Below are positions 38,254 through 57,973 of a stretch of 64,000 nt of DNA, in pieces. A program made the position numbers and the translations under genes. How positions within the stretch are numbered: the stretch's first letter is position 1; each line of letters starts with the position of its first letter. Source of the DNA: Minisyncoccota bacterium (lineage in GTDB: Bacteria; Patescibacteriota; Minisyncoccia; UBA6257; 2-01-FULL-56-20). Below the pieces are notes generated by a model, which did no database searches, was not told the DNA's origin, and was given only the letters and a program-made list of their open reading frames with translations. The stretch covers positions 3,962 through 67,961 of the forward strand of contig DATKNL010000002.1 of assembly GCA_035541435.1 (NCBI GenBank), read 5' to 3'.

Positions 38254-38691
38254 CTAGGTGACGCTGCCTCCGGCCTTTTGGATCTTCGCCTTGGCGCTTT
38301 CCGAAACCTTGAGCCCGGCGACGGCGATCGGGAACGCGATATCGCCGGTGCCGAGCACCTTCACGATGCCGCGGAAGTTCTTATGCAGCAGGCCCGCCTC
38401 GCGCAGAAGCTCGTGGTTCACCGCAAGGGGCGCCGGGCCCTTCGCGCGCGACTGCAGCCGTGCGGCAAGCAGGTTCAGGTTCAACACGTGCTCGTTGATG
38501 TCCTTCTGCTTGTTACGGAAGCCGCGCATCTTCGGCAGGCGGATGATGAGGTCGCGCTCCGCGGGGCGGATGCGGTGGCCCGAGCGGGACTTCTGTCCCT
38601 TCACGCCGCGGCCCGAATAGCTGCCGCGCTTGCCGCTGCGGCCGATGCGCTGGGTCTTCTTCTGGATTGAGGGAAGCTGATGGACGTGCAT
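38254..38691 (-). CDS. rplO: 50S ribosomal protein L15
   Basis: RIGRSGKRGSYSGRGVKGQKSRSG. Confidence 0.85.
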   Translation of the reverse strand: MHVHQLPSIQKKTQRIGRSGKRGSYSGRGVKGQKSRSGHRIRPAERDLIIRLPKMRGFRNKQKDINEHVLNLNLLAARLQSRAKGPAPLAVNHELLREAGLLHKNFRGIVKVLGTGDIAFPIAVAGLKVSESAKAKIQKAGGSVT

Positions 38692-38698
38692 GGTGGTG

Positions 38699-39181
38699 TT
38701 AGGCTTTGAGCTTGCGGAGCGCCTCGAGCGTGGCCATCGCGTTCGTGAGCTTGTTCGGCGTGCGGCCGAGGATCTTCGCCGTGGCGTCCTTCACGCCCGC
38801 GAAGGCGAGAACGAAGCGGACGCTGCCGCCGGCGCGCAGGCCGTGGCCCTTGCTCGCAGGCTTGAGGAGCACCTTGGCGGCGCTGTATTTCGCAAGGACC
38901 TCGTGGGCGATCGTGCGCTGGTCCTTGAGGCTGATCGTGAGCATGTTCTTCCTGGCCTCGGTCTTCGCCTTGGCGACGGCCTGCTGGACGTCGAGGCCCT
39001 TCGCGACGCCGATGCCGACGCGGCCCTTCTCGTCGCCGAGGACGAGGGTCGCGCGGAACCTGAAGCGCTTGCCGCCGGCAACGACGCGCGTCACGCGCCG
39101 CATGTCGAGCACGCGCTCGCGGAATTCGCTCTTGACCGGCACGGCGCTATCGCGCCGCCTCTGGAATGTGGGTGCTGGCAT
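38699..39181 (-). CDS. rpsE: 30S ribosomal protein S5
   Basis: RVTRVVAGGKRFRFRATLVLGD. Confidence 0.9.
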   Translation of the reverse strand: MPAPTFQRRRDSAVPVKSEFRERVLDMRRVTRVVAGGKRFRFRATLVLGDEKGRVGIGVAKGLDVQQAVAKAKTEARKNMLTISLKDQRTIAHEVLAKYSAAKVLLKPASKGHGLRAGGSVRFVLAFAGVKDATAKILGRTPNKLTNAMATLEALRKLKA

Positions 39182-39185
39182 GGTG

Positions 39186-39587
39186 TTAGATGGTAAGTCC
39201 CGCTTTCTTCGCGCCTTCGGCGAACTGTTTCACCCGACCGTGAAACTTGTACGATCCGCGGTCGAAGACCGCCTTCGTGATCCCCTTCTCGGTAGCCTTG
39301 CGGCCGAGCACCTCGCCCACCGTGAACGCCTCGTCGGCCTTCTTCGCTTTGGCCTTGGCCTTCGCCGCTGCGGCTGCCGATTTCGCGGCCGCGCCGGCGG
39401 TCTTCGCCGCCGAGCTCGAAACCGAGACGATCGTGACGCCCTTCATGTCGTCGATCAGCTGCGCATAAAAATGGCGGTTGCTGCGGAACACCGCGAGGCG
39501 GGGCCGTTCGGCCGTCCCCTCGATGGCTGCGCGGGTGCGCGCGCCGCGGCGGATCCTCTTTTCGTTGAGCTTCTTCCTTGGGTTCAT
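39186..39587 (-). CDS. rplR: 50S ribosomal protein L18
   Basis: RPRLAVFRSNRHFYAQLIDD. Confidence 0.85.
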   Translation of the reverse strand: MNPRKKLNEKRIRRGARTRAAIEGTAERPRLAVFRSNRHFYAQLIDDMKGVTIVSVSSSAAKTAGAAAKSAAAAAKAKAKAKKADEAFTVGEVLGRKATEKGITKAVFDRGSYKFHGRVKQFAEGAKKAGLTI

Positions 39588-39597
39588 GATGGTGATG

Positions 39598-40152
39598 TTA
39601 CGACGCCGTCGCTCCGGCTTTCTTGCCGACCTTGCGGCGGATCACTTCGCCCTGATAATGGATGCCCTTGCCCTTGTACGGTTCGGGCTTCTTGAGCGCC
39701 CGGATCTCGGCCGCAGCCTGCCCGACCGCTTCCTTGCTGATGCCCGTGATCTTGATCGTGTTCTTCTCGAGCGTGATCTCGACGCCCGCGGGAACCGGCA
39801 GCTTGACCGGCTGGGCATAGCCGAGATACAGGACGAGCGTCTTGCCTTCCATCACGGCGCGGTAGCCGACGCCCTCGATCTCGAGGACCTTCGTGAACCC
39901 GTCGGTCACGCCGGCGATCGCGTTCTTCGCAAGCGCATAGAACGTCCCCGCCATGGCGGTCGAGCCGTTGCCCTTCGCCGTCACATTCGCGTTCGTCCCT
40001 TCGACGGCGATGTCGACGTTGTGCGGGATCCTGACCGTGAGCGCGCCCTTCGGGCCCTTCACGGCAAGAACGTCGCCGTCCTTCGTGACGGTCGCTCCCT
40101 GCGCGATGATGATGGGTTTCTTGATGAGGCGGGACATGTTACCAGATTTCAA
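39598..40152 (-). CDS. rplF: 50S ribosomal protein L6
   Basis: MSRLIKKPI...VKGPKG; two-domain L6 fold. Confidence 0.9.
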   Translation of the reverse strand: MKSGNMSRLIKKPIIIAQGATVTKDGDVLAVKGPKGALTVRIPHNVDIAVEGTNANVTAKGNGSTAMAGTFYALAKNAIAGVTDGFTKVLEIEGVGYRAVMEGKTLVLYLGYAQPVKLPVPAGVEITLEKNTIKITGISKEAVGQAAAEIRALKKPEPYKGKGIHYQGEVIRRKVGKKAGATAS

Positions 40153-40511
40153 AAAGATATTCGCCGCCGATTTTCGCCTTGAGCGCCTGCTTGTCCGACA
40201 TGATGCCCTTCGAGGTCGAGAAGACGCCGATGCCGTGGCCCTGCTTCACCCGGCGGATGCTGCGGTAGTCGGCATAGAAATGGCGGCTCGGCTTGCTCAC
40301 GATCTTGAAATCGTTCAGGGCCTTGTCCTTCGCCGGAAGCTTCACGGCGATCACGGTGCGGCGGCCGACGGTCTCTTTTTCGGCGCTCTTCACATAGCCG
40401 CCGTCCGTCAGCACCTTGAGCACCGCGAAGTCCATTTTCGAGTACGGAAACGTCACCCGGTCTTTGCGGGCCCGCACGGCATTTTTGAGTTCTGAAAGGA
40501 TGTTGTAATAC
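40139..40511 (-). CDS. rpsH: 30S ribosomal protein S8
   Basis: Start at MYYNILSEL (ATG 40511); C-terminal GEYLFEIW. Confidence 0.85.
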
Positions 40512-40530
40512 ATGCTCGTGGTGATCGGGA

Positions 40531-40716
40531 TTACCAGGACGCCTTTTTCACGCCCGGGATCTGCTGGTTGGTCGCCATCTCGCGGAAGCAGATGCGGCAC
40601 AGGCCGAAATCGCGCATATAGCCGCGCTTGCGGCCGCAGCGGAAACAGCGGCGCACGGCGCGGGTCGAGTACTTCGGGCGCTTTTTCGATCGCGCGATGA
40701 CGGATGCTTTTGCCAT
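40531..40716 (-). CDS. rpsZ: 30S ribosomal protein S14 type Z (zinc-binding, 61 aa)
   Basis: [20 protein letters not shown]. Confidence 0.85.
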
Positions 40717-40717
40717 G

Positions 40718-41278
40718 TTATTTCCTCTTCTTCGGCGCCGCCCCCTTCTTCATCGGGACGCCGAACTTCGCGAACGCGGCGACCGCCGCATCGTGGTTCT
40801 TCTTCTTGGGAACGATGCTCACGCCGATCGAGAACGAAACGGGCGACTGTTCGGGCGTGATTTCGGGGAACACCTGATGCTCTCTGATGCCGACGTTCAG
40901 CGTGCCGCCCTGGTCGATGGCGGATTGGTTCAGGCCGTTAAAGTCGCGCACACGGGGCAATACTATTGTAATCAGACGCTCGAAAAAATCAACCATTTTG
41001 TCGCGGCGAAGGGTCGTCCGCAGGCCGACGATCTGGCCTTCGCGGAGCTTGAAGCCCGCGATGGACTTCTTCGCGCGGCGGAGCTGCGGCTTCTGGCCGG
41101 CGATGTCGGCGAGGTCGCGCTCGACCTGGACGAGCGTCTTGTCCTCGAAGTTCGGCGTCTGGCCGAGACGGCCGACACCCGCGTCGATCACGATCTTCTC
41201 GAGGAAGGCCCTGATCTCCTTGCGCTGGTTCTGTTGTTCGGTGTTCGTAGCCATGGTGGTTAGATGGTCGCCTTGCAT
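40718..41278 (-). CDS. rplE: 50S ribosomal protein L5
   Basis: Length 186 aa, conserved L5 core. Confidence 0.9.
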
Positions 41279-41568
41279 TTCTTGCAGAAACGGACCTTGG
41301 TCCCCTTCCCCTCGATGCGATAGCCGATCCGGGTCGGCTGCTTGCAGCTCGCGCAGACGAGCTGCACCTTCGAGACGGGCATCGGGCGGGCGACGTTGAC
41401 GATCTGGCCGGTTTCTCCCTGGCGGCGGGGGCGCGAACGCTTCTTGAAGAGGTTCAGCCCCTCGACGACGATCCTGTCCTCGATCGGGTATGCCAAAAGC
41501 ACGGTCCCGGTCTTGCCCCGGTCCTTTCCCGACATGATCTTCACATGATCGCCCTTCTTAATCTTCAT
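41260..41568 (-). CDS. rplX: 50S ribosomal protein L24
   Basis: MKIKKGDHVKIMSGKDRGKTG KOW motif. Confidence 0.85.
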   Translation of the reverse strand: MKIKKGDHVKIMSGKDRGKTGTVLLAYPIEDRIVVEGLNLFKKRSRPRRQGETGQIVNVARPMPVSKVQLVCASCKQPTRIGYRIEGKGTKVRFCKKCKATI

Positions 41569-41614
41569 GGTTTTGATATTCGTACATTCGTAAAAATTCG
41601 TTCGTTCGCGAACA

Positions 41615-41983
41615 TTAGACGATTTCCTCGGCCATCGTCATGAGCTTCTCATAGCCCTTCTCCTTGAGCTCGCGAGGCAGGGGGCCGAAGATGCGGGTTG
41701 CGACCGGCTCTTTTTTCGCGTCGATGAGGACGACGGCGTTCTCGTCGAAGCGGACGTACGATCCGTCCTTGCGGCGCATCGCGTTCCTCGTGCGGACGAC
41801 GAGCACCTTCACGACGTCCTTCTTCTTGACGCTCTTGCGGGGCTCAGCCGACTGCACCGAGGCGACCACGATGTCGCCGATGTTCGCATAGCGGTGGCGG
41901 GTGCCGCCGAGGATGCGGAAGCACCGCACGACTTTGGCGCCGCTGTTGTCCGCTACCTTGAGGATGGAACGTTCCTGGATCAT
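41615..41983 (-). CDS. rplN: 50S ribosomal protein L14
   Basis: [17 protein letters not shown]. Confidence 0.9.
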
Positions 41984-41989
41984 GGCTCG

Positions 41990-42259
41990 TTATTTCGTGA
42001 CCTTGCCGACGATGCGCCAGCGCTTGTCCTTCGATATGGGGCGCGTCTCTTCGATCACGACCTTGTCGCCGGCCTTATACTCGTTGTTCTCGTCATGCGC
42101 CTTGAACTTCGCCGTGACGCGGTAATAGGTCACGTACTTCGGGTGCTTCTTGAGGCGCTCGACGGCAACGACGCGCGTCTTCTGCATGCGGTCAGAGACG
42201 ACGGTGCCGGTAAGCTTGCGGTGCCTGGGTTGGGATTGGATTGGGGTTGCCTTCTGCAT
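41990..42259 (-). CDS. rpsQ: 30S ribosomal protein S17
   Basis: [17 protein letters not shown]. Confidence 0.85.
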
Positions 42260-42267
42260 GGTCGTGG

Positions 42268-42462
42268 TTATGCCTTGGCTTTCAAAAACGTCTTTACGCG
42301 CGCGATCTTCTTCTTGAGCTCGCGGAGTTCCGCTACATTCTTCACTTTTCCGGCCGCAAGGTCAAACCGGAGCACGCGCAGCTTCTCTTTGCTCTCGCGC
42401 TCGAGGTTCGTGAGGTCGGCGGCCGAGCGGTTTTTGAGGTCCTGGATGTCTTTCTTCTTCAT
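42268..42462 (-). CDS. rpmC: 50S ribosomal protein L29
   Basis: 64 aa, L29-like coiled coil. Confidence 0.8.
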
Positions 42463-42471
42463 GGCTCGTGG

Positions 42472-42894
42472 TTAATGGGTGCCCATCTTCTCGATGATGC
42501 GACTCTTTACCGGAAGCTTGTAGGACGCGTGACGCAGGGCTTCTTTGGCTTTCCCGGCCTCGACGCCGTCGATTTCGAAAAGGATCCGTCCCGGCTTCAC
42601 CGGGAATACGAAATGGTCAACCGATCCCTTGCCGCCGCCGAGCGTCTTTTCAGGCGCCTGGAGCGTGATCGGCTTGTCGGGGAAGATCCGGATCCAGAGG
42701 CGCCCTTCGCGCTTGAGGAAGTTCGTGATCGTCTTGCGGGCGGCCTCGATCTGGCGCGAGTTGACCCACGCCGCCTCGAGCGACTTCAAGCCGAACTGGC
42801 CGTAGCTCAGCTCGAGCCCGCGCGTCTCAACGGTGCGCTTCTTCGAGCGCCCCTTCTGCCATTTGCGATGTTTTACTTTTTTAGGAAGCAGCAT
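42472..42894 (-). CDS. rplP: 50S ribosomal protein L16
   Basis: MLLPKKVKHRKWQKGR. Confidence 0.9.
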   Translation of the reverse strand: MLLPKKVKHRKWQKGRSKKRTVETRGLELSYGQFGLKSLEAAWVNSRQIEAARKTITNFLKREGRLWIRIFPDKPITLQAPEKTLGGGKGSVDHFVFPVKPGRILFEIDGVEAGKAKEALRHASYKLPVKSRIIEKMGTH

Positions 42895-42906
42895 GGTCGT
42901 GATGTC

Positions 42907-43677
42907 TTATTGGCGGGGTGCGGTGCGCGGCGCCTTATCGTCGCGGCCATAGGGCGGACGGGGTCCCCGCATGTCGCGGCGGCCGGCGAAGCGGCTGTCT
43001 TCGCGCTCCTGGGCGGCGCGGTCCTTGGCGAAAATCTCTCCTTTATAGACCCACACGCGGATGCCGATCGTGCCATAGCTCGTCTTCGCGGTCACGCGGC
43101 CATAGTCGATGTCGGCGCGGAGCGTCTGCAGCGGGAGCGAGCCCCGCGACAGCCATTCGCGGCGCGCGATCTCCTTGCCGTCGAGGCGGCCCGACAGGAA
43201 CACCTTCACGCCCTTCACGTCCTTGTTCTGCTGCACCTGCTCCACGTATTTCTTCATCGTGCGGCGGAACGGCATGCGGCGCTCAAGGTCCCATGCGATC
43301 TGCTGGGCGACATAGCGGGCCGAAACTTCGGAACGCTTGAGTTCCTCGACGTTGAGGCTGAGCGCAACCTTGTTGCGGTTGCCGCGGACCTTCTGCAGCG
43401 CCGTGACGACGGCCTTCTGCAGGTCCTCCATCCCCTTGCCACCACGGCCGATCACGAGGCCCGGACGGGCCGCCTTGATATAGACGCGAAGGTTGCCCTG
43501 CGTGCGCTCGATCTGGACCTCGGAAATGCCGGCCTGGGCGATCTTCTGGTCGATCGTCGCGCGGATGGCCTCGTCCTCTTCCAGGAACTGCTTGTAGCCG
43601 GCCTTAAGGAACCAGCGAACCGGCCAGTCCTTCGTCACCCCGAGGCGGTATGAATTTGGATTGATCTTCTGTCCCAT
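42907..43677 (-). CDS. rpsC: 30S ribosomal protein S3 (with RG-rich C-terminal tail)
   Basis: MGQKINPNSYRLGVTKDW; KH domain. Confidence 0.9.
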   Translation of the reverse strand: MGQKINPNSYRLGVTKDWPVRWFLKAGYKQFLEEDEAIRATIDQKIAQAGISEVQIERTQGNLRVYIKAARPGLVIGRGGKGMEDLQKAVVTALQKVRGNRNKVALSLNVEELKRSEVSARYVAQQIAWDLERRMPFRRTMKKYVEQVQQNKDVKGVKVFLSGRLDGKEIARREWLSRGSLPLQTLRADIDYGRVTAKTSYGTIGIRVWVYKGEIFAKDRAAQEREDSRFAGRRDMRGPRPPYGRDDKAPRTAPRQ

Positions 43678-43683
43678 GGCGTG

Positions 43684-44199
43684 TTAGATATTGCCCGACT
43701 TGCGGCGCGTGAACGTGCGCTTCCAGAATCCGGGCTTCTGCGGCCTCGAGTCCTTCTCGGTGCCGGTATCGGGCGTGTGCTTGTCCTTGATCTTCTTCGT
43801 GTCGGTCACGGGCGGCAGCTTCGTCTTCTTCGGCGCCACGATCGTGAACTTCGGCTTGAGCGCCTCATTCACGCCGAGCGTGATCGTCACGTGGCTCATC
43901 TTCTTCTCGATCGGCGATGCCGAACCGCGGGCGCGGGGCAGGATGCGCTTCAGCATCGGCCCGCCATCGACGCGGACGTTCTGTACGAAAAGATGGTCGG
44001 CATTGAGCTTCTTGTTGGTTTTAGCATTCGCGACGGCCGAGCGCAAGAGCTTCAGGAGCGCTTTTGCGGGCCGGCGGCGCTGGGTGATGAGCTGCGCCTC
44101 GGCCTCGTTCACCGGCATGCCCTTCACGAGGTCGCCAACGCTGCGCACCTTGCGGGGTGCCATGCGGAGATAGCGGAGGGTTGCGGTTTGCTGTTCCAT
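43684..44199 (-). CDS. rplV: 50S ribosomal protein L22 (C-terminally extended)
   Basis: TATLRYLRMAPRKVRSV. Confidence 0.85.
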   Translation of the reverse strand: MEQQTATLRYLRMAPRKVRSVGDLVKGMPVNEAEAQLITQRRRPAKALLKLLRSAVANAKTNKKLNADHLFVQNVRVDGGPMLKRILPRARGSASPIEKKMSHVTITLGVNEALKPKFTIVAPKKTKLPPVTDTKKIKDKHTPDTGTEKDSRPQKPGFWKRTFTRRKSGNI

Positions 44200-44205
44200 G
44201 GTTCG

Positions 44206-44529
44206 TTATTTCTTGGCTGCCTGCGATGCGGCCTTTCCGGCCTCGGCGGCCTTGAGCTCGAGCTCTTTCTGCATCTTGCCGCCGTGACGGGTGAACTTGC
44301 GCGTGGGCGAGAACTCGCCGAGGCGATGCCCCACCATCTCTTCGGTCACGCGGACCTCGATGAAGGCCCGGCCGTTGTGCACGCCGAACACGTGGCCCAC
44401 CATTTCGGGGGCGATCTCCGAGGCGCGCGACCAGGTCTTGATGACCGTACCGCTTCCCGCCTTGGCGGCGGCCACCTTCTTCAGCAGCTTCGGATCGACG
44501 AACGGTCCTTTTTTGAGGCTTCGGCTCAT
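44206..44529 (-). CDS. rpsS: 30S ribosomal protein S19
   Basis: [18 protein letters not shown]; start at internal ATG 44529. Confidence 0.9.
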
Positions 44530-44549
44530 GGTTTCGTTATATGGATAGG

Positions 44550-45392
44550 TTAGTTCGTTCCGCGGGCGTTCTTGCGGCGCTTCACGATGAATTTGCTCGA
44601 CTTCTTCTTCGGGTTGCGGGTCTTGTGGCCGCCGGTCACCTTGCCCCACATCGTCTTCGGCTTGCGGGTGCCGCGAGGCTGCGCGCCTTCGCCGCCGCCG
44701 TACGGATGGTCAACCGGGTTCATGGCACTGCCGCGGACCGTCGGACGGATGCCGAGCCAGCGCGAGCGTCCCGCCTTGCCGATCGAGATGAGGCTCCATT
44801 CGGCGTTCGAGACCTGGCCGAGCGAGGCGAGGCACGTCCACTGGACGCGGCGCACTTCGCCGGAGTTGAGCTTGAGGTCGGTATAGCCGTCGGCGTTCGC
44901 AAGAACTTCGGCATAGGAACCCGCCGAACGCGCGAGCTGTCCGCCGCGGCCCGGCGTCATCTCGACGTTATAGACCTGATAGCCGACCGGGATGTTCTTG
45001 AGGCTCATGCGGTTGCCCGGCTTGAAGGGCGTCGTTTCGGCGACCGCGATCTCGGTGCCGACCGCGAGGCCTTCGGGAGCGAGGATGTAGCTGCGGCTGC
45101 CGTCGGCATTCTTCACGCGCGCGATGAACGCCGTGCGATACGGGTCATATTCGATCGTCTCGACAAGCTGCTTCGCGTTCATGACGTTCTGCCTGAAATC
45201 AACCATGCGGTACAGCTTCTTGTTGCCGCCGCCCTGGTGTCGCGTCGTGATGCGGCCTTGCGAGTTGCGGCCGGCGCGCGACTTGAGGCGCTTGAGGAGC
45301 GGCTTGTACGGGCGTGCGCCTTTCGTAAGCACGCTGTAGTCGGTCCCGGTCATGTTGCGCCGCGAGGCGCTTGTGGGCTTGTAGGTCTTCAT
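44550..45392 (-). CDS. rplB: 50S ribosomal protein L2
   Basis: [24 protein letters not shown]. Confidence 0.9.
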
Positions 45393-45398
45393 GGCTCG

Positions 45399-45674
45399 TT
45401 ATACGAGGTCGATTTTCTGGCCTTCCTTCAAGGTCACGATCGCCTTGCGATAGCCTTCCTGGACGCCGCGGCGGTTCATGTAGCGCTTGCTCTTCGCCGG
45501 GCGGTTCACGACGTTAACGTCGGTGACGTCCACCTTATAAATGTCCCGGATCGCCTTCTTGATTTCGGGCTTCGAGGCTTTCTCGCGCACGAGGAACACG
45601 TATTTGCGGTCGGCACCCATGAGGGCCGCCTTCTCGGTGATCCACGGCTTCTTGATGATGAATTGGTCGGTCAT
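45399..45674 (-). CDS. rplW: 50S ribosomal protein L23
   Basis: 91 aa L23-like. Confidence 0.85.
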   Translation of the reverse strand: MTDQFIIKKPWITEKAALMGADRKYVFLVREKASKPEIKKAIRDIYKVDVTDVNVVNRPAKSKRYMNRRGVQEGYRKAIVTLKEGQKIDLV

Positions 45675-45683
45675 GGCTCGTTA

Positions 45684-46322
45684 TTAGTAGTGCTTTTCGA
45701 TGGTGGCGACCGACGACTTCTCGATAAAGAGGTTCTTATGATTCAAAACATCGAACACGTTGAGGGACATCGCGTCGATGGCCTTCGCCTTCTGCAGGTT
45801 GGACGAGGCGCGGAAGAGGTTCTTGTTGTCCTTGCTCGAAACGAGGAGCACGTCATAGCGCTTCGCGCGCTTCTGCATCGCGAGCGCCGTGCCGAGCGAC
45901 GAGGCGAGCACCTTGGTCTTCGGAGCCTCGATCGCGAACGAGTCGAACACCTTGAGCTCGCCGTCCTTCGCCTTGCGCGAAAGCGCGACGAACAGCGCGA
46001 GGCGCTTCATCTTCTTGTTGACCTTCTGCGAATAGTCCTTGTCGTTGCGCGGACCGTGGGCCTTGCCGCCATGGACCCAGATCGGCGACCGGGTGGAGCC
46101 GTGGCGCGCGCGGCCGGTCCCCTTCTGACGCCAAGGCTTTTTGCCGCCGCCGCTCACCTCGCTGCGGTCGCGCACGTGCGCCCACGGACGCCGGGCATTC
46201 GCAGCCTGGGCGTCGAGCACCTGCTTCACGAGCGTCGAGTTCCAACGCGCGCCGAAGACGGCCTCGGGCAGATCAACCGTGCCAACCACTTCGTTTTTCA
46301 GATTGTAGACGTCGGTCTTCAT
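45684..46322 (-). CDS. rplD: 50S ribosomal protein L4
   Basis: GGGKKPWRQKGTGRARHGS. Confidence 0.85.
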   Translation of the reverse strand: MKTDVYNLKNEVVGTVDLPEAVFGARWNSTLVKQVLDAQAANARRPWAHVRDRSEVSGGGKKPWRQKGTGRARHGSTRSPIWVHGGKAHGPRNDKDYSQKVNKKMKRLALFVALSRKAKDGELKVFDSFAIEAPKTKVLASSLGTALAMQKRAKRYDVLLVSSKDNKNLFRASSNLQKAKAIDAMSLNVFDVLNHKNLFIEKSSVATIEKHY

Positions 46323-46327
46323 GGTCG

Positions 46328-46909
46328 TTATTTGTCGGACTTCGCCGGCCTGCCGGTCGCGATTTCCAAAAAGCCGCCGCGGGCGCCCGGCACCGCGCCG
46401 CGGAGATAGAGCAGGTTCTTGTCCTTGTCGACGGCCGCGACGACCAGGTTCTTGATCGTCACGCGCTCGACGCCCATATGGCCGGCCATGCGGCGGCCCG
46501 GAACGACGCGCTGGAATGCGGTCGAGCCGATGGAGCCCGGCGCGCGATGGCGGTTCTTCTGACCGTGGGTCTTGGGACCGCCGCCGAAGCCGTGACGCTT
46601 GACGACGCCCTGGAAGCCGCGGCCCTTCGTGAGACCCGAGACGCGGACCTTGTCGCCCTCTTTGAACGACTCGACGGTGACGTCGGCGCCGACTTCGAGC
46701 GCGGCCATGTCGACCGGCTGGATCGCGCGGTTGCGAAATTCGCGCTTGGTCTTGCCCATCGCCACCTGGACGGCCTCATAGCCGTCCCGCTCGTTCGTGC
46801 GGAGCATGGCAACCTTGTTCGGTTCGGCCTTGACGACCGTAACCGGGACGACTTTGCCGTCCTTCCACATCTGCGTCATATTGAGTTTTTTGCCTAAGAT
46901 GAAGGCCAT
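46328..46909 (-). CDS. rplC: 50S ribosomal protein L3
   Basis: MAFILGKKLNMTQ start at 46909; GKTKREFRN, GHMGVERVT. Confidence 0.9.
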   Translation of the reverse strand: MAFILGKKLNMTQMWKDGKVVPVTVVKAEPNKVAMLRTNERDGYEAVQVAMGKTKREFRNRAIQPVDMAALEVGADVTVESFKEGDKVRVSGLTKGRGFQGVVKRHGFGGGPKTHGQKNRHRAPGSIGSTAFQRVVPGRRMAGHMGVERVTIKNLVVAAVDKDKNLLYLRGAVPGARGGFLEIATGRPAKSDK

Positions 46910-47147: not shown

Positions 47148-48164
47148 CTACGGGATGAGCGGCCGGAGGGCGGCGGCGTCGAGCGCATAGGCGCGCACGA
47201 AGGAATCGTCCACATGGGCATAGAGGGTGCCTTCGCCCTTCCTGCCGGGAACGAACTGGCTCGCGAACGTGATGGTGCGGGCCTCGCTGTCGCGGATCAG
47301 GGGCTGTTCGGACACCCATTCGATGCCGCCGTTCTCATAGTCATAGACGAAGAGCCCGACCGAAAACAGGCCGTGATGGATGCGGTCGTGCTTGCGCGTG
47401 TCGGCCTCGCGCCCGTTCATCACGCCGAGCAGCTTGCCCGCGCCCACGTCGATGAAGTCCCTCGGCAGCAGCGGTCCCGGCGACGCGTGGCCGGCGATCC
47501 ACGGGATGCCGTGTTCGGCAGGATGGAAGACCACGTCGCCGAACTCCCACGGCTCCCCCATCTCGAGCGCGACCGCCGACCGCACGACCGAATAGGTCAT
47601 GCCGTCGATCGTGTTGCTCGATTCGACGAGGTTGAACCGGTATCCCTCCTTGTTGAGCGGCGCGATCGAGACCTCCTTCGCGCCGTCCTGGCCGCTGTCG
47701 GTGAGGACGGGCAGCGTCATCGTGAGCGACATGAGGTCTCTGCCAACCGCGTGTCCCAGATGGACCCGCGTGTGCGCGTGGTTCGTGAGCGCGCCGTGGA
47801 AGATCGGCATCGTGAAATAGAGATGCATGAGGCCGGCTGCATCGTCGATCCAGATGTCGGGATCCTCGAGGCCGAGAAAGTCGTCGCCGCGACCCGTGAG
47901 GGACGCGATCATCTCCTTTTCGTGCCTGATCGGCAGGCGCTCGCCGATCGCGAAACGCCCCGCAGGGTCGAGCGCGATCCCGCGGAGCTCGCTGTGATCA
48001 AGCGCGCCGCCATCGACGAGGTCGCCCTCGCGGCTCGTGATGCAGCGCGCCACGCCGCGCTCGAACCGCGCGGTCGGATCAAGCGTGATCGCCATCACGT
48101 GCTTAAACCGCTCGTCGGTCTCGATCACGCGGCCGGGGAGTTCGCGGTAAGGCTCATGTTGCAT
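47148..48164 (-). CDS. Hypothetical β-propeller protein, possibly GH130/GH43-like (DUF377-like) glycoside hydrolase/phosphorylase
   Basis: 338 aa, Asp/Gly/Trp-rich propeller-like composition; weak family call from motif impression only; TATACT-N6-ATG. Confidence 0.35.
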   Translation of the reverse strand: MQHEPYRELPGRVIETDERFKHVMAITLDPTARFERGVARCITSREGDLVDGGALDHSELRGIALDPAGRFAIGERLPIRHEKEMIASLTGRGDDFLGLEDPDIWIDDAAGLMHLYFTMPIFHGALTNHAHTRVHLGHAVGRDLMSLTMTLPVLTDSGQDGAKEVSIAPLNKEGYRFNLVESSNTIDGMTYSVVRSAVALEMGEPWEFGDVVFHPAEHGIPWIAGHASPGPLLPRDFIDVGAGKLLGVMNGREADTRKHDRIHHGLFSVGLFVYDYENGGIEWVSEQPLIRDSEARTITFASQFVPGRKGEGTLYAHVDDSFVRAYALDAAALRPLIP

Positions 48165-48209
48165 TTTTTTAGTATATCAAAGCAGCCCTAAGACTGTATT
48201 CTTCAACTA

Positions 48210-48238
48210 TTGACAATTATTATATCAATTGCTAAAAT
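48210..48238 (+). promoter_or_regulatory. Near-consensus sigma70 promoter TTGACA-N17-TAAAAT
   Basis: Seen directly; followed by AAGGAG RBS at 48253. Confidence 0.65.
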
Positions 48239-48263
48239 GTTGTCAGTTCATAAGGAGCTGACA

Positions 48264-48629
48264 ATGGAAAAGAAGCGTCGACTGCGACTGATCGGAATGT
48301 TGATCGACCTTTACACCCTTCTAGCCCTGGTTGGAATGTGCTTCCTTTTTCGGGCACACTGGCCGGTCGCCCTCGCCTCCATTATTATGGCGATGTCATG
48401 CGCGATAAAGATTGGCGGCAAGGTCGGCGTGGGCGTTGGCTACGGCACCCTTATGTTTGCGGGGTGCATGGGAATGTGTTTCTGCCCTTTCTGGCCCGAC
48501 GCCGCGAAGGCTGTCGCTCTTGTAGGAGGAATTCCTGCACTGATCTACGCCTGCTGCGGACTATGGATGAGCGCGACAACCAGGGAAATCAGCCTGATCG
48601 AACTCATCCAAATCAGAAAAAATTGGTAA
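48264..48629 (+). CDS. Small Cys-rich membrane protein (121 aa), AT-rich island
   Basis: AAGGAG-N5-ATG; 3-4 TM; motifs MGMCFCPFWP, YACCGLW. Confidence 0.45.
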   Translation: MEKKRRLRLIGMLIDLYTLLALVGMCFLFRAHWPVALASIIMAMSCAIKIGGKVGVGVGYGTLMFAGCMGMCFCPFWPDAAKAVALVGGIPALIYACCGLWMSATTREISLIELIQIRKNW

Positions 48630-48869
48630 AAATCATGCGGCGCGCCGAGCAAATGGTGCGCCGCTTTTCTTATCAGAAAAAATCACCGCCTTCGTGGGGA
48701 TTTCCATTGCGTAATTTTCATGAAATTCAGCATAGCAAAAACAGCCCTTGTGGGCTGTTTTTGCAAACCGAGGTTCGGTTAGGAAATCTCAGCTTACAAC
48801 GATCCAATTTAATCCTCCCCGTACCGATGTCAATCTCCATTAAGGGAAGATTAAATTTATAAACGAGAT

Positions 48870-48901
48870 AAATAAATTCCCCCTCGCGGGGGAATTTATT
48901 T
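48870..48901. terminator. Bidirectional terminator, perfect 14-bp stem (aaataaattccccc/gggggaatttattt) ending the tuf-rpsJ unit
   Basis: Seen directly; overlaps the rpsJ stop codon. Confidence 0.75.
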
Positions 48902-49223
48902 ACACCATTTTGATTTCAATATCTACGCCGGCGGGAAGATTCAGGTTTGAGAGGGACTCGATGATCTTCGCGCTCGGGTTCACGATCTCAACCAGCCGCT
49001 TATGTACCCGAAGCTCGAACTGCTCGCGGGAGTCCTTGTGGACGAACGTCGAGCGGTTCACGGTGTAGCGCTTGATCTCGGTCGGAAGCGGGATCGGTCC
49101 CACGACTTTCGCGTCATTCCGCTCCGCCGACTCGATGATCTGCCGCGCGGAGTTGTCGATCAGCTTGTGATCGTACGACTTGATGCGCAGGCGGATCTTC
49201 TGGGGTACTTCGGTCTTGGCCAT
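48900..49223 (-). CDS. rpsJ: 30S ribosomal protein S10
   Basis: [23 protein letters not shown]... Confidence 0.9.
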
Positions 49224-49239: not shown

Positions 49240-50439
<1,200 letters not shown>

Positions 50440-51240: not shown

Positions 51241-52389
51241 TTACCGGCCGCTTTCCATCCCGCCGCCCGGCTCGACGCGCGAGCGCACGACGCCGTCCCT
51301 GAGCTCGGTCTCGAGCCGGTCGCCGGGCGCGACGTCGCCTGCGCTCCGCACGATGCGGCCGTCGCGGCGCATGATGGAATAGCCGAACGCAAGCTGGCGG
51401 CGCGGGTCGTGGATGCGCACGAAGCGCTCGGCGTAGTCGATCACATCCTTGCCGTGGGCGATCCCCTGCTCCACCTGGTTCGTCATCGAGTCGCGCGCGA
51501 ACATGAGGTCGTTGCGGACGCGGCGGAACTCCTGCTCGATGCGGCCGAGCAGGTACGGGACCTGCTGCAGCTTCGCGAACGCCTCTTCCCACGTGCGGCC
51601 GAGCGCGTGCGCGGCGGCGGTGGGCGTCGAGGTCATGAGGTCGGCGGCGAGGGCGACGAGCGGGACGTCCTGGTCGTGCCCGATGCCCGCGATCACCGGG
51701 ACCGGGAAGGACCCAATCGCGCGGACGAGCGCCTCGTTGTTGAACGCCTGGAGCGACTCGAGCGAGCCGCCGCCGCGGATCACGACGAGCACGTCGATCA
51801 TCCCCTCCTCCGCCTCGCGGCGCATGCGCGCGACCGCCTTCATGAGCGGCGCGGCGGCCTGCTGCCCCTCGACGCGCGAGTCGAGCACGCTGATCACGAA
51901 ACCGAATTTGCCGAGGTTGTTCTGAAAGTCGTGGATGACGGCGCCCTTCATCGAGGTGATGACGCCGATGCGGCGCGGATAGTCCGGCAGCGGCCGCTTG
52001 CGTTCGGGCGCGAACACGCCCTCGGCCTCGAGCCTCTTCTTCAGCGCGTCATAGGCCTTCTTGAGCGCGCCCTCGCCGACGAGCTCCACCGTGTCGGCGA
52101 CGAACGACAGCCGGCCGCTCGGGGCGTAGACGTTCGGGTGGCCCGACAGGATGAGCTCCATGCCGACCTCGATCGCCACGCCGCAGAGCTCGTAATTGCG
52201 GCTCCAGATGATGCAGTCAAGCACGCCCTTGTCCTCTTTATCCTTCACGGTGAAATAGACGTGGCCCGAGGCGGCGCGCTTCAGCTCGCAGACCTCGCCC
52301 GTCACGCGGACCGCCTGCGCCTTGAAGATCTCGTTCAGGAAGGCGATGAATTCGCCGACCGTAAAAAGCTTTTCCCTCACGTCGAGCAT
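51241..52389 (-). CDS. xseA: Exodeoxyribonuclease VII large subunit
   Basis: OB-fold N-terminus (VRVTGEVCELKRAASGHVYFTVKD), catalytic core VIRGGGSLE. Confidence 0.8.
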   Translation of the reverse strand: MLDVREKLFTVGEFIAFLNEIFKAQAVRVTGEVCELKRAASGHVYFTVKDKEDKGVLDCIIWSRNYELCGVAIEVGMELILSGHPNVYAPSGRLSFVADTVELVGEGALKKAYDALKKRLEAEGVFAPERKRPLPDYPRRIGVITSMKGAVIHDFQNNLGKFGFVISVLDSRVEGQQAAAPLMKAVARMRREAEEGMIDVLVVIRGGGSLESLQAFNNEALVRAIGSFPVPVIAGIGHDQDVPLVALAADLMTSTPTAAAHALGRTWEEAFAKLQQVPYLLGRIEQEFRRVRNDLMFARDSMTNQVEQGIAHGKDVIDYAERFVRIHDPRRQLAFGYSIMRRDGRIVRSAGDVAPGDRLETELRDGVVRSRVEPGGGMESGR

Positions 52390-53801: not shown

Positions 53802-54380
53802 TCACCCGATTTTGAAATTGCCTCTTGCTATGTCGTCGAGTTCGCCGTCACCGAAGACGCCCGGCTTGACGCGGCCGCTTTCGTCGACGAGCGACCCACC
53901 GGGATCCTTCGCGGGGATAAAGGTCAGGTGCGGCAGGAACATGAGGTCGTAACCCCTTTCCCTGATCGCGGCCACGAGCTCGGTAATCTCGGCGCTTTCG
54001 TTCACGGCCTTGATGACACCGACCGAAAACTCGTTGGCCCAGTTGGCGAATTGCGCCGCCTCCTCTTCGGTGTATGACCTCTTCTCGTGTTCGCCGTTGC
54101 GGGTGAACCAGAATGCCGAAAGCGGCACGACGGCTCCCGCGCAGTGGACAGGCTTCTTGGAATCGGCTTCCCCGAGAAGAAGCAGCTGCGTATGAAGCTT
54201 GCGGCAGGGCATGTTCAACGGCGCTTCGACAACCTTCCAGACGACGAAGGGGCCGGTCGAGCCAAGGCAGTCCCGCAGGCCCGACGACTGCGTATAAAAG
54301 TCCTCCTGTTCGGGATCGATCAGCCGCAGCCAAACCGTATCCCCGGGCTCGAACACCGTATGTCGTTCCGGATTTCCCAT
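53802..54380 (-). CDS. Hypothetical protein (192 aa)
   Basis: GAGAGGG RBS; terminator at 53750-53789. Confidence 0.45.
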   Translation of the reverse strand: MGNPERHTVFEPGDTVWLRLIDPEQEDFYTQSSGLRDCLGSTGPFVVWKVVEAPLNMPCRKLHTQLLLLGEADSKKPVHCAGAVVPLSAFWFTRNGEHEKRSYTEEEAAQFANWANEFSVGVIKAVNESAEITELVAAIRERGYDLMFLPHLTFIPAKDPGGSLVDESGRVKPGVFGDGELDDIARGNFKIG

Positions 54381-54495: not shown

Positions 54496-56601
<2,106 letters not shown>

Positions 56602-56605
56602 GATG

Positions 56606-56639
56606 TTACGAAATTACGAATTTTTACGAATATACGAAT
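56606..56639. repeat. Left ~32-bp inverted repeat (TTACGAAATTACGAATTTTTACGAATATACGAAT) flanking the GxxExxY gene; lies in the fusA 5' region
   Basis: Reverse complement matches 57039-57069 at ~29/32 positions. Confidence 0.75.
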
Positions 56640-57040
56640 TATTGTTCATTGACGATCCTTTTGAAAATCACTCCCTTGCTTGAAAACCTCGCCAGAATGG
56701 CGAGTTTCAAGTTCGTCGCCTTCAGATATCCATAAACTTGAGTGATGTCATGTTTGGAGAATCGGTTTCCTCGTTTGAGTTCCAGGACGATCTTTCCGTC
56801 GATTAGGAAATCCAGAATTTGCCTGCCTATGATCTTGTTCTTGAATTTTATTTCGTAAGCGATCTGCTGCTTGAATGGAATCCTGGCGATCGCAAGCTCT
56901 TGGGCAATCGCGCGCTGATAGTATTTTTCCCGATAACCATATCCCAACGCGTTAAAGACCGAGAACAGGGCTCCGACGACCCGATAACTGAGTTCGGGAT
57001 ACAGAATATCGGCACGTTCGAGTTTCTTCTTTTCCGCCAT
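56639..57040 (-). CDS. GxxExxY family protein (PD-(D/E)XK nuclease-like)
   Basis: GYREKYY = GxxExxY motif; D...ELK (ILDFLIDGKIVLELKRG); AT-rich gene inserted between rpsG and fusA. Confidence 0.7.
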   Translation of the reverse strand: MAEKKKLERADILYPELSYRVVGALFSVFNALGYGYREKYYQRAIAQELAIARIPFKQQIAYEIKFKNKIIGRQILDFLIDGKIVLELKRGNRFSKHDITQVYGYLKATNLKLAILARFSSKGVIFKRIVNEQ

Positions 57041-57069
57041 TCGTATATTCGTACATATTCGTAATTTCG
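57039..57069. repeat. Right inverted repeat (ATTCGTATATTCGTACATATTCGTAATTTCG)
   Basis: Partner of 56606-56639; begins exactly at the GxxExxY start codon. Confidence 0.75.
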
Positions 57070-57073
57070 CAAA

Positions 57074-57541
57074 CTACCGGGCGAAATGGGCGAAGGCGCG
57101 GTTGGCCTCGGCCATGCGGTGCGTGTCCTGCTTCTTCTTGATCGCGGAACCCTCGTTCTTCGCGGCGGCGATCAGCTCGTCGGCGAGCTTTTCGGCCATC
57201 GGCTTGCCCTTGCGCGCGCGGGCGGCGCCGATGATCCAGCGGAGGGCGAGGATGAAGCGGCGCTCGGGGCGCACTTCGCGCGGAACCTGGTAGTTCGCGC
57301 CGCCGACCCGCTTCGAGGCGACCTCGAGGAGCGGCGAGGCGTTCTCGAGCGCCTTGTCGAAGATGACGAGCGGGTCCTCCTTGGTCTGCTCTTTGATCTT
57401 GTCGAACGCGGCATAGACCACGCGCTCGGCGGTGGACTTCTTGCCGTCCTTCATCACGTAGTTGATGAAACGGCCGAGCTCGACGCGTCCGTGGACGGCA
57501 TCGGGCTGGTGGTATTTCTTATAGACGCGCTTCTTTCTCAT
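57074..57541 (-). CDS. rpsG: 30S ribosomal protein S7
   Basis: 155 aa S7 fold, conserved KRELGPDA-like core. Confidence 0.9.
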
Positions 57542-57562
57542 GTCGTTCTGTGGTTGCTGACG

Positions 57563-57973
57563 TTATTTCGCCTTCTTGGCTCCATATTTGGAACGCTGCT
57601 GCTTGCGGCCGTCGACGCCGGTCGTGTCGAGCACGCCGCGCACGATGTGATAGCGCACGCCCGGAAGGTCCTTCACGCGGCCGCCGCGGAGCACGACGAT
57701 CGAGTGCTCCTGCAGCGAGTGTCCCTCGCCCGGGATATAGGCCGTGACCTCGGTGCCGTTCGTGAGGCGCACGCGCGCCACCTTGCGGAGGGCCGAGTTC
57801 GGCTTCTTCGGGGTCTGGGTGAACACCTTCACGCACACGCCGCGCTTGAACGGGGCGCCCGAATGGACGGGGCGGTTCTTGATGGAATTGAAATAGAACG
57901 ACAACGCCGGCGATTTGCTCTTCGCCTTGTGGGGATGACGTCCTTTCTTGATGAGCTGCCGAACGGTGGGCAT
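57563..57973 (-). CDS. rpsL: 30S ribosomal protein S12
   Basis: [12 protein letters not shown]; [10 protein letters not shown]; start at ATG 57973. Confidence 0.9.

Follow-up and report, generated by a model that had tools for sequence, protein, structure and literature searches.

The 402-nt open reading frame that separates rpsG from fusA in this 64-kb stretch of a Candidatus Paceibacterota genome (the window) is best explained, with a probability that we put at roughly 55%, as one copy of a conserved, horizontally spreading and operon-embedded GxxExxY nuclease cassette, whose arms would act as sequence-specific cis elements. The proposed layout is an array arm, the GxxExxY nuclease gene and an inverted array arm, set in a 5-nt rpsG–fusA intercistronic spacer, and the cassette would be transcribed as part of the rpsG–fusA operon. 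According to this explanation, a small, probably dimeric, PD-(D/E)XK protein would recognise the TAC(G/A/T)AAT units of the arms in a sequence-specific manner, and most of the spread of the cassette would consist of transfers to one and the same conserved site, moves to other sites being occasional. Such a transfer could rely on double-strand-break repair, as in homing, or simply on homologous recombination via the conserved genes on either side. Annotation of the family nowhere goes beyond "GxxExxY protein", function unknown; in one large subfamily a conserved cis architecture is now shown, with strict position and orientation in essential operons, ORF-less derivatives, and signs of horizontal spread accompanied by strong purifying selection.

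The gene (minus strand, 56639-57040; 133 aa, 402 nt including the TAA stop) lies, as proposed in the first-pass annotation, between the upstream host gene rpsG (57074-57541; P0121, 100% identity, named 30S ribosomal protein S7) and the downstream host gene fusA, coding for EF-G (54496-56601), both of them on the minus strand. The whole element measures 467 nt, and repeats and gene occupy the entire rpsG–fusA spacer. The 5′ arm, TTGCGAAATTACGAATATGTACGAATATACGAAT in mRNA sense (57039-57072, minus strand), starts 1 nt past the rpsG stop and comprises four (T)ACGAA(T) units, the first one degenerate (TGCGAA); its final two bases are the AT of the ATG of the ORF. The 3′ arm, ATTCGTATATTCGTAAAAATTCGTAATTTCGTAA in mRNA sense (56606-56639, minus strand), is the reverse complement of four TACGAA units, shares 1 nt with the stop codon TAA of the ORF and leaves 4 nt to the fusA ATG. 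In both arms the four units follow a 9-nt period. The inverted repeats had been described as near-identical, with 29 matches in ~32 bp; they are real, and slightly longer and better than that, as a repeat search gives 34 nt with 31/34 positions (91%) complementary and 399 nt between the arms. The ORF does meet the inner repeat edges as claimed, with an overlap of 2 nt at the ATG and 1 nt at the stop. A chance inverted repeat, or an assembly artefact around an ordinary hypothetical gene, has a practically negligible probability: nothing speaks for it beyond the AT-rich, low-complexity appearance of the arms, and it is refuted by the shuffles (the 34-mer with up to three mismatches hits just the two arm positions in 64 kb, with 0 expected from 100 shuffles) and by the recurrence of the same architecture in different phyla, where dozens of assemblies show it independently.

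The composition of the insert is distinct from that of its surroundings, with 45% GC versus 63% in the context (0.40-0.49 across the insert, 0.60-0.69 on either side). The junctions read TAGT/TTGCGAA...TTCGTAA/CATCATG (slashes at the arm edges), and neither a direct repeat nor any other target-site duplication is visible in them. The CATC ahead of the fusA ATG resembles the ATC-ATG junction of the empty sites L082, L098, and L103.

As first read from the letters alone, the protein is a GxxExxY (PD-(D/E)XK-like) protein, and a full-length, high-scoring member of that family: it matches TIGR04256 with 94.7 bits over the full profile (positions 1-116; cut-off 35) and PF13366 (PDDEXK_3) with 94 bits (cut-off 22), the latter being the only Pfam match of the ORF. 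The nuclease motif D77...E87-x-K89 is intact, the catalytic residues are invariant, and the PD-(D/E)XK catalytic motif is accompanied by the α-β-β-β-α-β core fold. In structural comparison, the protein is most similar to nucleases that act on DNA (Cas4, BpuSI, and Dna2); a sequence search found no solved structure. Pfam detects PDDEXK_3 alone in the ORF and no transposase domain, and Pfam together with NCBIfam returns only PDDEXK_3 and GxxExxY, with no IS200/IS605-like Y1 (HUH) transposase. Readings as a defence-system or phage gene were dropped since nothing significant appeared in either resource: PADLOC gave merely sub-threshold Cas4 matches (E 0.019) and PHROGs no match. With 17,484 clusters at 50% identity (E ≤ 1e-3), the family is a large one, and around 25 of its top 150 representatives are tandem two-domain fusions, which suggests that the protein acts as a dimer. 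In the literature, it is listed merely as 'function unknown' (PMC3424549, Table).

The comparison of 78 homologous loci (Patescibacteria, Bacteroidota, and others) shows that the gene and its arms recur together. Both flanks carry at least two units in 63 of the 78 loci and at least three units in 47, while the background density is 0.31 units per 83 nt. The opposite pattern, in which the repeats would be absent from homologous insert sites and the gene present here in all relatives, is contradicted by these counts and by the nearest relatives, in which the site has no such gene. The typical arm consists of four TAC(G/A/T)AAT units in a 2+2 layout (logo T-A-C-[G/A/T]-A-A-T; spacing 7-8, 10-11, and 8), so that the gene is flanked by inverted arrays. 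The variant of the unit is concerted between the two arms of one locus (r = 0.82), and both unit sequence and 2+2 layout are kept between phyla with proteins just ~50% identical. The central spacer of one arm is often different from that of the other. Arms and ORF evidently travel together, as one unit, across phyla. The conservation of TACGAAT units at this distance argues for sequence-specific recognition rather than for a mere stem, and we infer that the protein is what recognises them. In all of the 11 loci with ACAAA units, the N-terminal motif of the protein is altered from (R/K)xDLxYPELSY to xKVxY(K/P)ELSY. This link between N-terminal motif and unit variant may be partly phylogenetic. 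The conservation of the arm sequence across phyla was missed in the first reading of this DNA.

As a rule, the cassette takes up the whole spacer between two co-directional housekeeping genes and is read in their sense. Both neighbours are co-oriented with the gene in 65 of 77 loci, and only one of the 77 has the gene antisense between co-directional genes. The gap between upstream stop and arm has a median of 4.5 nt, and that between arm and following ATG one of 6 nt. The neighbours most often encode S7 and EF-G (10 loci) or aldehyde dehydrogenase and an AIR-synthase-like protein (6-7 loci); tRNA synthetases, DnaX, fmt, MreB, SecA, and others are also found. ORF-less palindromes of 4+4 units were located in other operon spacers (L148, 1368-1430; L099, 497-557; L012, 2390-2471; L140, 5261-5324; L067, 2112-2165). 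Across ~0.9 Mb of scanned loci, no second cargo family was found between TACGAAT arms, but ORF-less hairpins or solo arms only.

With regard to distribution, the nearest sampled relatives lack the gene at rpsG–fusA. Where S7 is 75-94% identical, the rpsG–fusA spacers are 5-30 nt long or hold unrelated inserts; no Pfam family was recognised in the other small ORFs that relatives carry at this site. The closest relatives available (L166-L170, S7 92-94% identical) have an unrelated 79-nt spacer, and further empty junctions include L083 and L088. No occupied/empty pair was found within the same species, hence the exact breakpoints rest on more distant empty sites. The cassette is lower in GC than its flanks in all 78 loci (median difference 0.114). 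Its distance does not correlate with host distance (rho 0.08): L161 and L096 have equally distant hosts, while their cassettes are 67% and 51% identical to that of the window, and a cassette 66% identical to the latter occupies another site, T2SSF. The rpsG–fusA cassettes nevertheless cluster by site, 13 of 18 having a same-site nearest neighbour versus a permutation mean of 3.7. As judged from these comparisons, occupancy is patchy and incongruent with the host phylogeny. The compact mobile cassette with terminal inverted repeats, which the first-pass annotation had suggested, is therefore supported by the like repeats at most homologous loci and by the nearest relatives that lack the gene. 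At some Bacteroidota sites the cassette has persisted vertically for long. The protein has a dN/dS of 0.02-0.07, and divergence in the arms lags far behind that at synonymous sites (for example, 2/90 versus pS 0.21, and 9/85 versus pS 0.83); by these measures, both protein and arms are under purifying selection. As for a vehicle of transfer, the family is essentially absent from viral contigs (2 weak matches in 2.9 million), so that no phage vehicle is apparent, and it is rare on plasmids; with both results, no transfer vehicle is identified.

Free-standing homing genes of the phage T4 seg/mob type offer a close precedent for such a pattern, as they place a nuclease gene precisely between conserved genes, with patchy presence, site-associated lineages, and incongruence with the host tree, all of which are also seen here. 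PD-(D/E)XK is one of the known homing-endonuclease folds (I-Ssp6803I). However, homing genes do not need the flanking inverted repeats that the cassette has, their hosts are phages and not cellular genomes of CPR and Bacteroidota, and the dN/dS of the cassette is far below that expected for a cycling parasitic homing gene. A value of ~0.05 and the long vertical persistence at some Bacteroidota sites would rather be expected of a gene that is useful to its host, or addictive, than of a homing gene with a purely parasitic life.

The same data bear on a conventional cut-and-paste transposon, in which GxxExxY would be a minimal PD-(D/E)XK transposase binding four sites per terminal inverted repeat and the ORF-less palindromes would be MITEs. 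Terminal inverted repeats with multiple subterminal units that resemble binding sites are typical of some transposons, such as Tn7 and Mu, and the multi-unit arms of the cassette resemble them. ORF-less derivatives that keep both arms exist, the closely related cassette at a different site would fit as well, and PD-(D/E)XK proteins with roles in transposition or recombination are known; PDDEXK_2 has been listed as a putative transposase (Steczkiewicz et al.; PMC3424549). Nonetheless, we regard this reading as quite improbable. The missing target-site duplication speaks against it, as does the age of intragenomic copies: no near-identical copies were found in the genome fragments compared, and the same-genome pairs L006/L040 and L038/L046 are just 52% and 69% identical, which gives no sign of recent intragenomic transposition. 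Moreover, cassettes are hardly ever inserted in antisense orientation or elsewhere than in operon spacers, they form site-associated lineages, and a single-domain nuclease of 130 aa is not known to perform strand transfer. The likeness to MITEs and insertion sequences (terminal inverted repeats, ORF-less derivatives, and intergenic location) is limited in the same way, since the cassette lacks a target-site duplication, near-identical copies, and a transposase of any recognised family, is strictly orientation-biased, and fits exactly from the stop codon to the next start codon. REP/RAYT (REPIN) systems are similar, by analogy only, in that inverted copies of a short repeat stand on either side of a small gene of the nuclease type, in that intergenic spacers contain this repeat as palindromic doublets with no ORF, and in that repeat sequence and protein appear to co-vary. 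They differ in the enzyme, a Y1 (HUH) IS200/IS605-type transposase there and a PD-(D/E)XK protein here, and in the repeat, a single REP hairpin there and a four-unit array per arm here; in addition, genomes with cassettes can hold several diverged gene copies, and no complete ORF-less element is found in the window.

At the RNA level, the two arms pair in both the MFE and the centroid folds, forming a duplex of ~31 bp with −39.6 kcal/mol. Within the cassette explanation, this pairing in the polycistronic mRNA (~31 bp, −40 kcal/mol) would loop out the ORF, bury its AUG and restore the distance between the rpsG stop and the fusA start to ~5-10 nt, as at empty sites; in this way, an operon with translational coupling and no SDs could put up with the insertion. 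Cleavage of the stem by RNase III would be a further, plausible possibility. Evidence of selection on the pairing itself was sought in 51 loci by comparing the 5′ arm with the reverse complement of the 3′ arm and counting mismatches: there were 54 G-U-compatible mismatches in the sense and 58 in the antisense orientation (p = 0.78), and the arm identity at spacer positions was 0.76 within a locus versus 0.71 between loci. Selection on RNA pairing, or locus-specific compensatory evolution, obtains no support from either result, and the RNA-stem role is accordingly to be taken as a consequence of the architecture and not as a demonstrated selected function. Rfam 15 gave no relevant match, either in the window (gathering threshold or E ≤ 10) or in six loci with ORF-less hairpins. 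It is important to note that, according to a survey of start contexts, Shine-Dalgarno sequences are absent from the ribosomal-protein genes of the host genome. The earlier claim that the left repeat replaces the SD of fusA does not stand for this reason: in a genome generally without SDs, nothing is replaced.

These features recall the ORF-bearing intervening sequences (IVS) of 23S rRNA, known from Coxiella burnetii and Leptospira (PMC4990558). Both are elements of ~430-470 nt with a single small ORF within terminal inverted repeats and a stem of ~30 bp, the insertion site is a very highly expressed and highly conserved transcription unit, the GC is below that of the host, the distribution is sporadic, and horizontal acquisition is inferred; in the window cassette, too, a terminal complementary stem encloses the element. 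A purely IVS-like interpretation would hold that the arms matter only as a dsRNA stem cut by host RNase III, with the ORF RNA excised and the ORF carried along passively, a view put forward for S23p of the Coxiella 23S IVS. The length of 467 nt and the stability of the stem would suit it. It is, however, improbable. A constraint on the stem only would permit compensatory drift; instead, the unit and its 2+2 layout are conserved between phyla, so that the arbitrary complementary ends of the IVS contrast with arrays of a conserved 7-nt unit here, and neither the frequent mismatches in the central arm spacers nor the missing wobble signature is expected from it. The ORF does not behave as passive cargo, given its dN/dS and invariant catalytic residues. 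No S23p or four-helix-bundle ORF is present, PF13366 being the only match and the fold α/β PD-(D/E)XK, and the S23p four-helix bundle of the IVS is replaced by a nuclease under strong purifying selection. The element is also outside rRNA, none of which is found in the 64-kb window; it lies in the spacer of an mRNA operon, between protein genes, and not within helix 9, 25 or 45 of 23S rRNA.

Another interpretation keeps the RNA but gives the protein an active part. In a host-integrated RNA-level system, GxxExxY would be a sequence-specific RNA (or RNA/DNA) endonuclease or binding protein and the TACGAAT hairpins of operon spacers its cis sites, with roles in intercistronic processing, stabilisation or translational coupling, autoregulation at its own site, and mobility as a secondary matter. 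We consider this rather unlikely. The patchy distribution, the cassette-less nearest relatives and the uniformly low GC speak against a core housekeeping role; no excess of G-U wobble is seen in sense orientation; the best structural matches are nucleases of DNA; and one intact cassette plus one solo arm in 64 kb do not amount to a genome-wide set of sites.

A broader proposal goes beyond the preferred cassette explanation. Tentatively, and with clearly more doubt than the latter, the GxxExxY gene, the TAC(G/A/T)AAT arms, and the ORF-less palindromes might constitute an unrecognised class of prokaryotic element, and no description of a gene-plus-array cassette architecture was found in the searchable literature. 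Such a class would be built on a minimal dimeric PD-(D/E)XK protein specific for short arrayed repeats, protein and repeat co-evolving, and its habitat would be the intercistronic spacers of essential operons in SD-poor lineages (Patescibacteria and Bacteroidota). It could be either a mobile element that uses no DDE, HUH, serine or tyrosine recombinase, or a transferable module for operon punctuation or RNA processing. If the protein mobilises the cassette, mobility would be achieved by an enzymatic route that is new; should the protein act on RNA instead, the cassette would be a transferable operon-processing device. In either case, an anonymous family becomes a testable system, with protein, likely binding units, and natural empty sites defined, as well as a specificity variant found in nature (ACGAA versus ACAAA, the latter together with the change in the N-terminal motif). 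The system also bears on how the compact CPR and Bacteroidota genomes cope with insertions that fall in the most conserved of their operons, and on how SD-less organisms preserve translational coupling.

The cassette is not strictly alone in the window, contrary to the initial description of it as the only element of its kind there, because a solo arm-like array (41569-41614, minus strand; GCGAACGAACGAATTTTTACGAATGTACGAAT... in the sense direction) is found in the rplN–rplX spacer. This array lacks both an ORF and a partner arm and is probably what remains of a second cassette. Outside the subfamily described here, distant GxxExxY subfamilies are flanked by different repeats.

The element fills the spacer between rpsG and fusA in a minus-strand gene cluster, where the transcription order is rpsL (57563-57973), rpsG (57074-57541), an ORF of 133 amino acids belonging to the GxxExxY family (56639-57040) and fusA (54496-56601). 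The ORF is enclosed by two inverted arms of 34 nt each (56606-56639 and 57039-57072), 91% complementary and 399 nt apart, which the repeat search reported as the single outstanding inverted repeat at this place. Each arm is composed of four TACGAA units with a 9-nt period. In the sense of the mRNA, the 5′ arm begins 1 nt past the rpsG stop and contributes its final two bases, AT, to the ORF start codon; the first base of the 3′ arm also belongs to the TAA stop, and this arm ends 4 nt short of the fusA ATG, so that the 472-nt spacer is nearly all element. The GC content is 0.40-0.49 across the insert vs 0.60-0.69 in both flanks. The first-pass annotation, which described an AT-rich ORF with near-identical inverted repeats at its edges, is confirmed in these respects. 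Allowing up to three mismatches, the 34-mer occurs at just two sites in the 64-kb window, namely the two arms, and in none of 100 dinucleotide-preserving shuffles.

The identity of the protein as GxxExxY, PD-(D/E)XK-like, also holds: it matches TIGR04256 with 94.7 bits (cut-off 35) and PF13366 (PDDEXK_3) with 94 bits (cut-off 22), in both cases over the full profile length. Six residues are invariant among 45 aligned relatives (E38, D77, E87, K89, Q101, and Y105), and they form the GxxxxExxY signature and the canonical D...ExK nuclease motif. No solved structure is detectable for this protein by sequence, and it has no match among the PADLOC and PHROGs families. The family comprises 17,484 clusters at 50% identity (E ≤ 1e-3), or 5,126 at E ≤ 1e-10, and was listed with function unknown in a survey of PD-(D/E)XK proteins (Steczkiewicz et al., PMC3424549). 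Among the top 150 representatives of the family, about 25 are ~265 amino acids long and have two GxxExxY domains fused in tandem (P0254, P0261, P0265, P0269, P0274, and others), which suggests that the single-domain proteins work as dimers. Since dN/dS between the proteins of related cassettes is 0.02-0.07, the protein is functional and constrained.

When one genome was scanned per species, 426 relatives were found, and the best 80 of these loci were analyzed; their hosts are Patescibacteria, Bacteroidota, one Planctomycetota MAG, and others. Far from being absent from the homologous sites, the repeats are present as at least two units in both flanks, with inverted array orientation, in 63 of 78 loci from this set, and as at least three in 47 of the 78 (background density, 0.31 units per 83 nt). 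As a logo, the unit is T-A-C-[G 60%/A 32%/T 8%]-A-A-T, and the most frequent arm layout has four units spaced by 7-8, 10-11, and 8 nt. Arms and ORF overlap in many loci, where a G following the last unit completes the ATG and the TAA stop extends into the 3′ arm's first unit. The unit variants ACAAA and ACTAA are concerted within a locus, also between its two arms (r = 0.82), and track the protein tree in part. At all 78 loci the GC content of the ORF is below that of its surroundings, by a median of 0.114. With high confidence, arms and ORF constitute a conserved, horizontally spreading unit; the feature of the window is one instance of a cassette spanning several phyla, and the original observation is thus more general than could be seen from the window.

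The neighbors of the cassette are housekeeping genes, both co-oriented with the GxxExxY gene in 65 of 77 loci; an antisense cassette between co-directional genes was found once in the 77. The unit arrays start a median of 4.5 nt after the stop codon of the upstream gene and end a median of 6 nt before the start codon of the next. Among the best 80 of the 426, ten loci have S7 (the rpsG product) upstream and EF-G (the fusA product) downstream, the same site as in the window, and in six to seven, from Bacteroidota, the cassette follows an aldehyde dehydrogenase gene and precedes an AIR-synthase-like one. Further neighbors are DnaX, class I tRNA synthetases, fmt, MreB, PGK, and SecA. Regarding the closest relatives of the window protein, P0009 (67% identity) and P0018 (64%) also belong to rpsG-fusA cassettes, and P0006 (66%) lies at another site, after a T2SSF gene.

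Scanning metagenomes with the window S7 as query provided 80 rpsG loci. On the S7+EF-G tree, the window's 13 nearest loci (S7 79-88%, EF-G N-terminus ~90%) all lack the cassette; they have either unrelated inserts or spacers of 5-30 nt (e.g., L083, TAG-aggtt-ATG; L088; L091), which are the empty sites sought in relatives. The nearest relatives by S7 (L166-L170, 92-94% identical) share an identical 79-nt spacer (1316-1394 in L166) that starts with TAGTCATGG and is unrelated to the cassette. Without the element, the window junction would read TAG-tcatc-ATG, a 5-nt spacer as in L083, and its ATC-ATG end resembles the empty-site junctions of L082, L098, and L103. Occupancy of the rpsG-fusA site is scattered across the host tree. 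For 13 of 18 rpsG-fusA cassettes the nearest relative is at the same site (permutation mean 3.7, maximum 11), and the distances between cassettes show no correlation with those between their hosts (rho 0.08, p = 0.35); for instance, the hosts of L161 and L096 are equally distant, and their cassettes are 67% and 51% identical to that of the window. Patchy occupancy, low GC, incongruence with the hosts, and lineages tied to a site speak, in combination, for this conserved site having been entered horizontally more than once, and a single ancient insertion is less likely. The route could be homing-like, or plain recombination via the conserved flanks. Classical transposition is another way to account for a gene between terminal inverted repeats, which MITEs also have, but no target-site duplication is visible at the window junctions and near-identical copies are lacking in the genome fragments compared, those within a genome being old (52% and 69% identity); this evidence speaks against it. 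The family is almost absent from 2.9 million viral contigs and rare on plasmids. Seven other rpsG-fusA spacers, from relatives (L081, L086, L089, L092, L102, L149, and L154), hold unrelated inserts of 240-800 nt with small ORFans of 74-147 amino acids, two of them membrane-like, without Pfam family; in Paceibacteria this site seems to attract small insertions generally.

In three pairs of related cassettes the arms diverge far less than synonymous sites: 2 mismatches in 90 at pS 0.21 (L058/L064), 9 in 85 at pS 0.83 (L021/L048), and 13 in 77 at pS 0.76 (L024/L076). By this measure the arms are functional and constrained in sequence. This constraint does not have the appearance of selection for pairing. 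Identity at spacer positions is 0.76 between the two arms of one locus, barely above the 0.71 between arms of unrelated loci, the central spacers of the two arms are frequently different, and the sense transcript has no surplus of G-U-compatible mismatches (54 vs 58, p = 0.78). The arms are therefore alike as arrays of one conserved motif, which points to a sequence-specific protein reading them. The sole constantly associated protein is GxxExxY itself. In this sense, all 11 loci with ACAAA units show a change of the N-terminal segment from (R/K)xDLxYPELSY to xKVxY(K/P)ELSY, and three of them have nearest relatives of ACGAA or ACTAA type by the rest of the protein; this link is suggestive of GxxExxY reading its own units, with phylogenetic confounding remaining. 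Distant GxxExxY genes on plasmids (29-31% identity) have other flanking repeats: an 11-nt inverted repeat, ACACGGATTCG, in Treponema pTS1 (L174); a 22-nt direct repeat, AGATTTAATCCGTGTACCTAT, containing AATCCGTGT, in Fusobacteria pZRK30-1 (L175); and TAAATCC arrays on both sides in the same orientation in a Persicobacter plasmid (L176).

At the RNA level, both arms pair in the MFE and centroid folds of the 496-nt transcript (z = -2.99 vs shuffles), as a duplex of 16 bp, a 3×3 loop, and 15 bp (-39.6 kcal/mol). Such a stem would bury the AUG of the ORF, and its base would put the rpsG stop ~5 nt from the fusA start, the spacing of the empty sites. RNase III may also cut it. The proposal that the left repeat replaces the Shine-Dalgarno sequence of fusA has no force, because the ribosomal-protein genes (minus strand, 38254-46909 and 57074-57973) carry none. 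Many of their junctions are of the form TAAC(G/A)ANCC-ATG, a stop followed by 7-8 nt, and the organism appears to depend on tight coupling instead of Shine-Dalgarno pairing. It is plausible that the insertion is tolerated because the termination-reinitiation geometry is kept, in genes without Shine-Dalgarno sequences and with very short spacers.

Cassette-carrying genomes also contain ORF-less palindromes, 4+4 units with a tiny loop, in other intercistronic spacers. These are notably frequent between rpsL and rpsG (L148, 1368-1430; L099, 497-557; L012, 2390-2471), and others are found in L140 (5261-5324) and L067 (2112-2165). More palindromes or solo arms of TAC(G/A/T)AAT lie between rpsL and rpsG in L164 (1931-1967) and L101 (1583-1617); in several Patescibacteria they fit exactly from stop to start codon. 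In L043 and L010 a gene is flanked by complete hairpins. The extra arrays lie between co-directional genes in 29 of 33 classifiable cases, a weak test in genomes so compact. The window itself has a solo arm-like array, GCGAACGAACGAATTTTTACGAATGTACGAAT (41569-41614, minus strand), which fills the 46-nt rplN-rplX spacer without ORF or partner arm, vs 7-10 nt in the spacers of neighboring ribosomal-protein genes. It matches a stretch of the fusA-proximal arm at 24 of 25 positions; a second cassette probably left it behind. The rpsG-fusA element, regarded in the first-pass annotation as the only one of its kind in the window, is thus the sole ORF-bearing one and has the only full copies of the 34-mer, but not the only array. 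The ORF-less palindromes and solo arms look like decayed or non-autonomous derivatives. No Rfam model corresponds to the arms or the solo array of the window, or to the ORF-less hairpins of six loci. Hairpins of other unit arrays, such as four inverted ATCCGAA units, are found at rpsG-fusA in relatives (L108-L111, 2968-3075; L143, 2968-3244; L136; L115-L117; L140), and L143 has a membrane ORF of 63 amino acids between CAAAATG-type arrays; hairpins made of arrays may form a wider class that includes several families of unit.

With moderate confidence, these features could be joined in one mechanism: the GxxExxY protein would read the units, the cassette would spread through recombination at conserved sites, and the RNA stem would neutralize the insertion. 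The cassette is akin to known kinds of element, being IVS-like, REPIN-like, and homing-like; that it stands for a distinct class is less likely but has a substantial probability. Among described structures, ORF-bearing intervening sequences in 23S rRNA come closest; in Coxiella such a sequence is 428-444 nt long, has a 28-bp terminal stem cut by RNase III in its middle, and contains a small ORF, with lower GC and sporadic, horizontally acquired occurrence (PMC4990558). The shape is common to both; however, the window element lies in an mRNA operon, encodes another protein family with a strongly constrained ORF, and has arms that are sequence-conserved arrays. REP/RAYT systems likewise have a gene enclosed by inverted repeats and further copies of these repeats as doublets lacking an ORF, but the enzyme of the cassette does not belong to the Y1 transposases. 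Free-standing homing endonuclease genes are similar in position, patchiness, and site lineages, but need no inverted repeats. No description of the GxxExxY cassette architecture was found in the searchable literature, whose coverage is incomplete, so an earlier account is possible.

Two further features of the window were noticed. The tuf gene (49240-50439) is ~4 kb from fusA, with other ORFs between them (e.g., 51241-52389 and 53802-54380), a spacing that departs from the usual adjacent arrangement of the str operon. Beside rpsJ, an AT-rich patch (48000-49200, GC 0.51-0.53) includes a hydrophobic ORF of 139 amino acids on the plus strand (48210-48629) and may be another small foreign insert.
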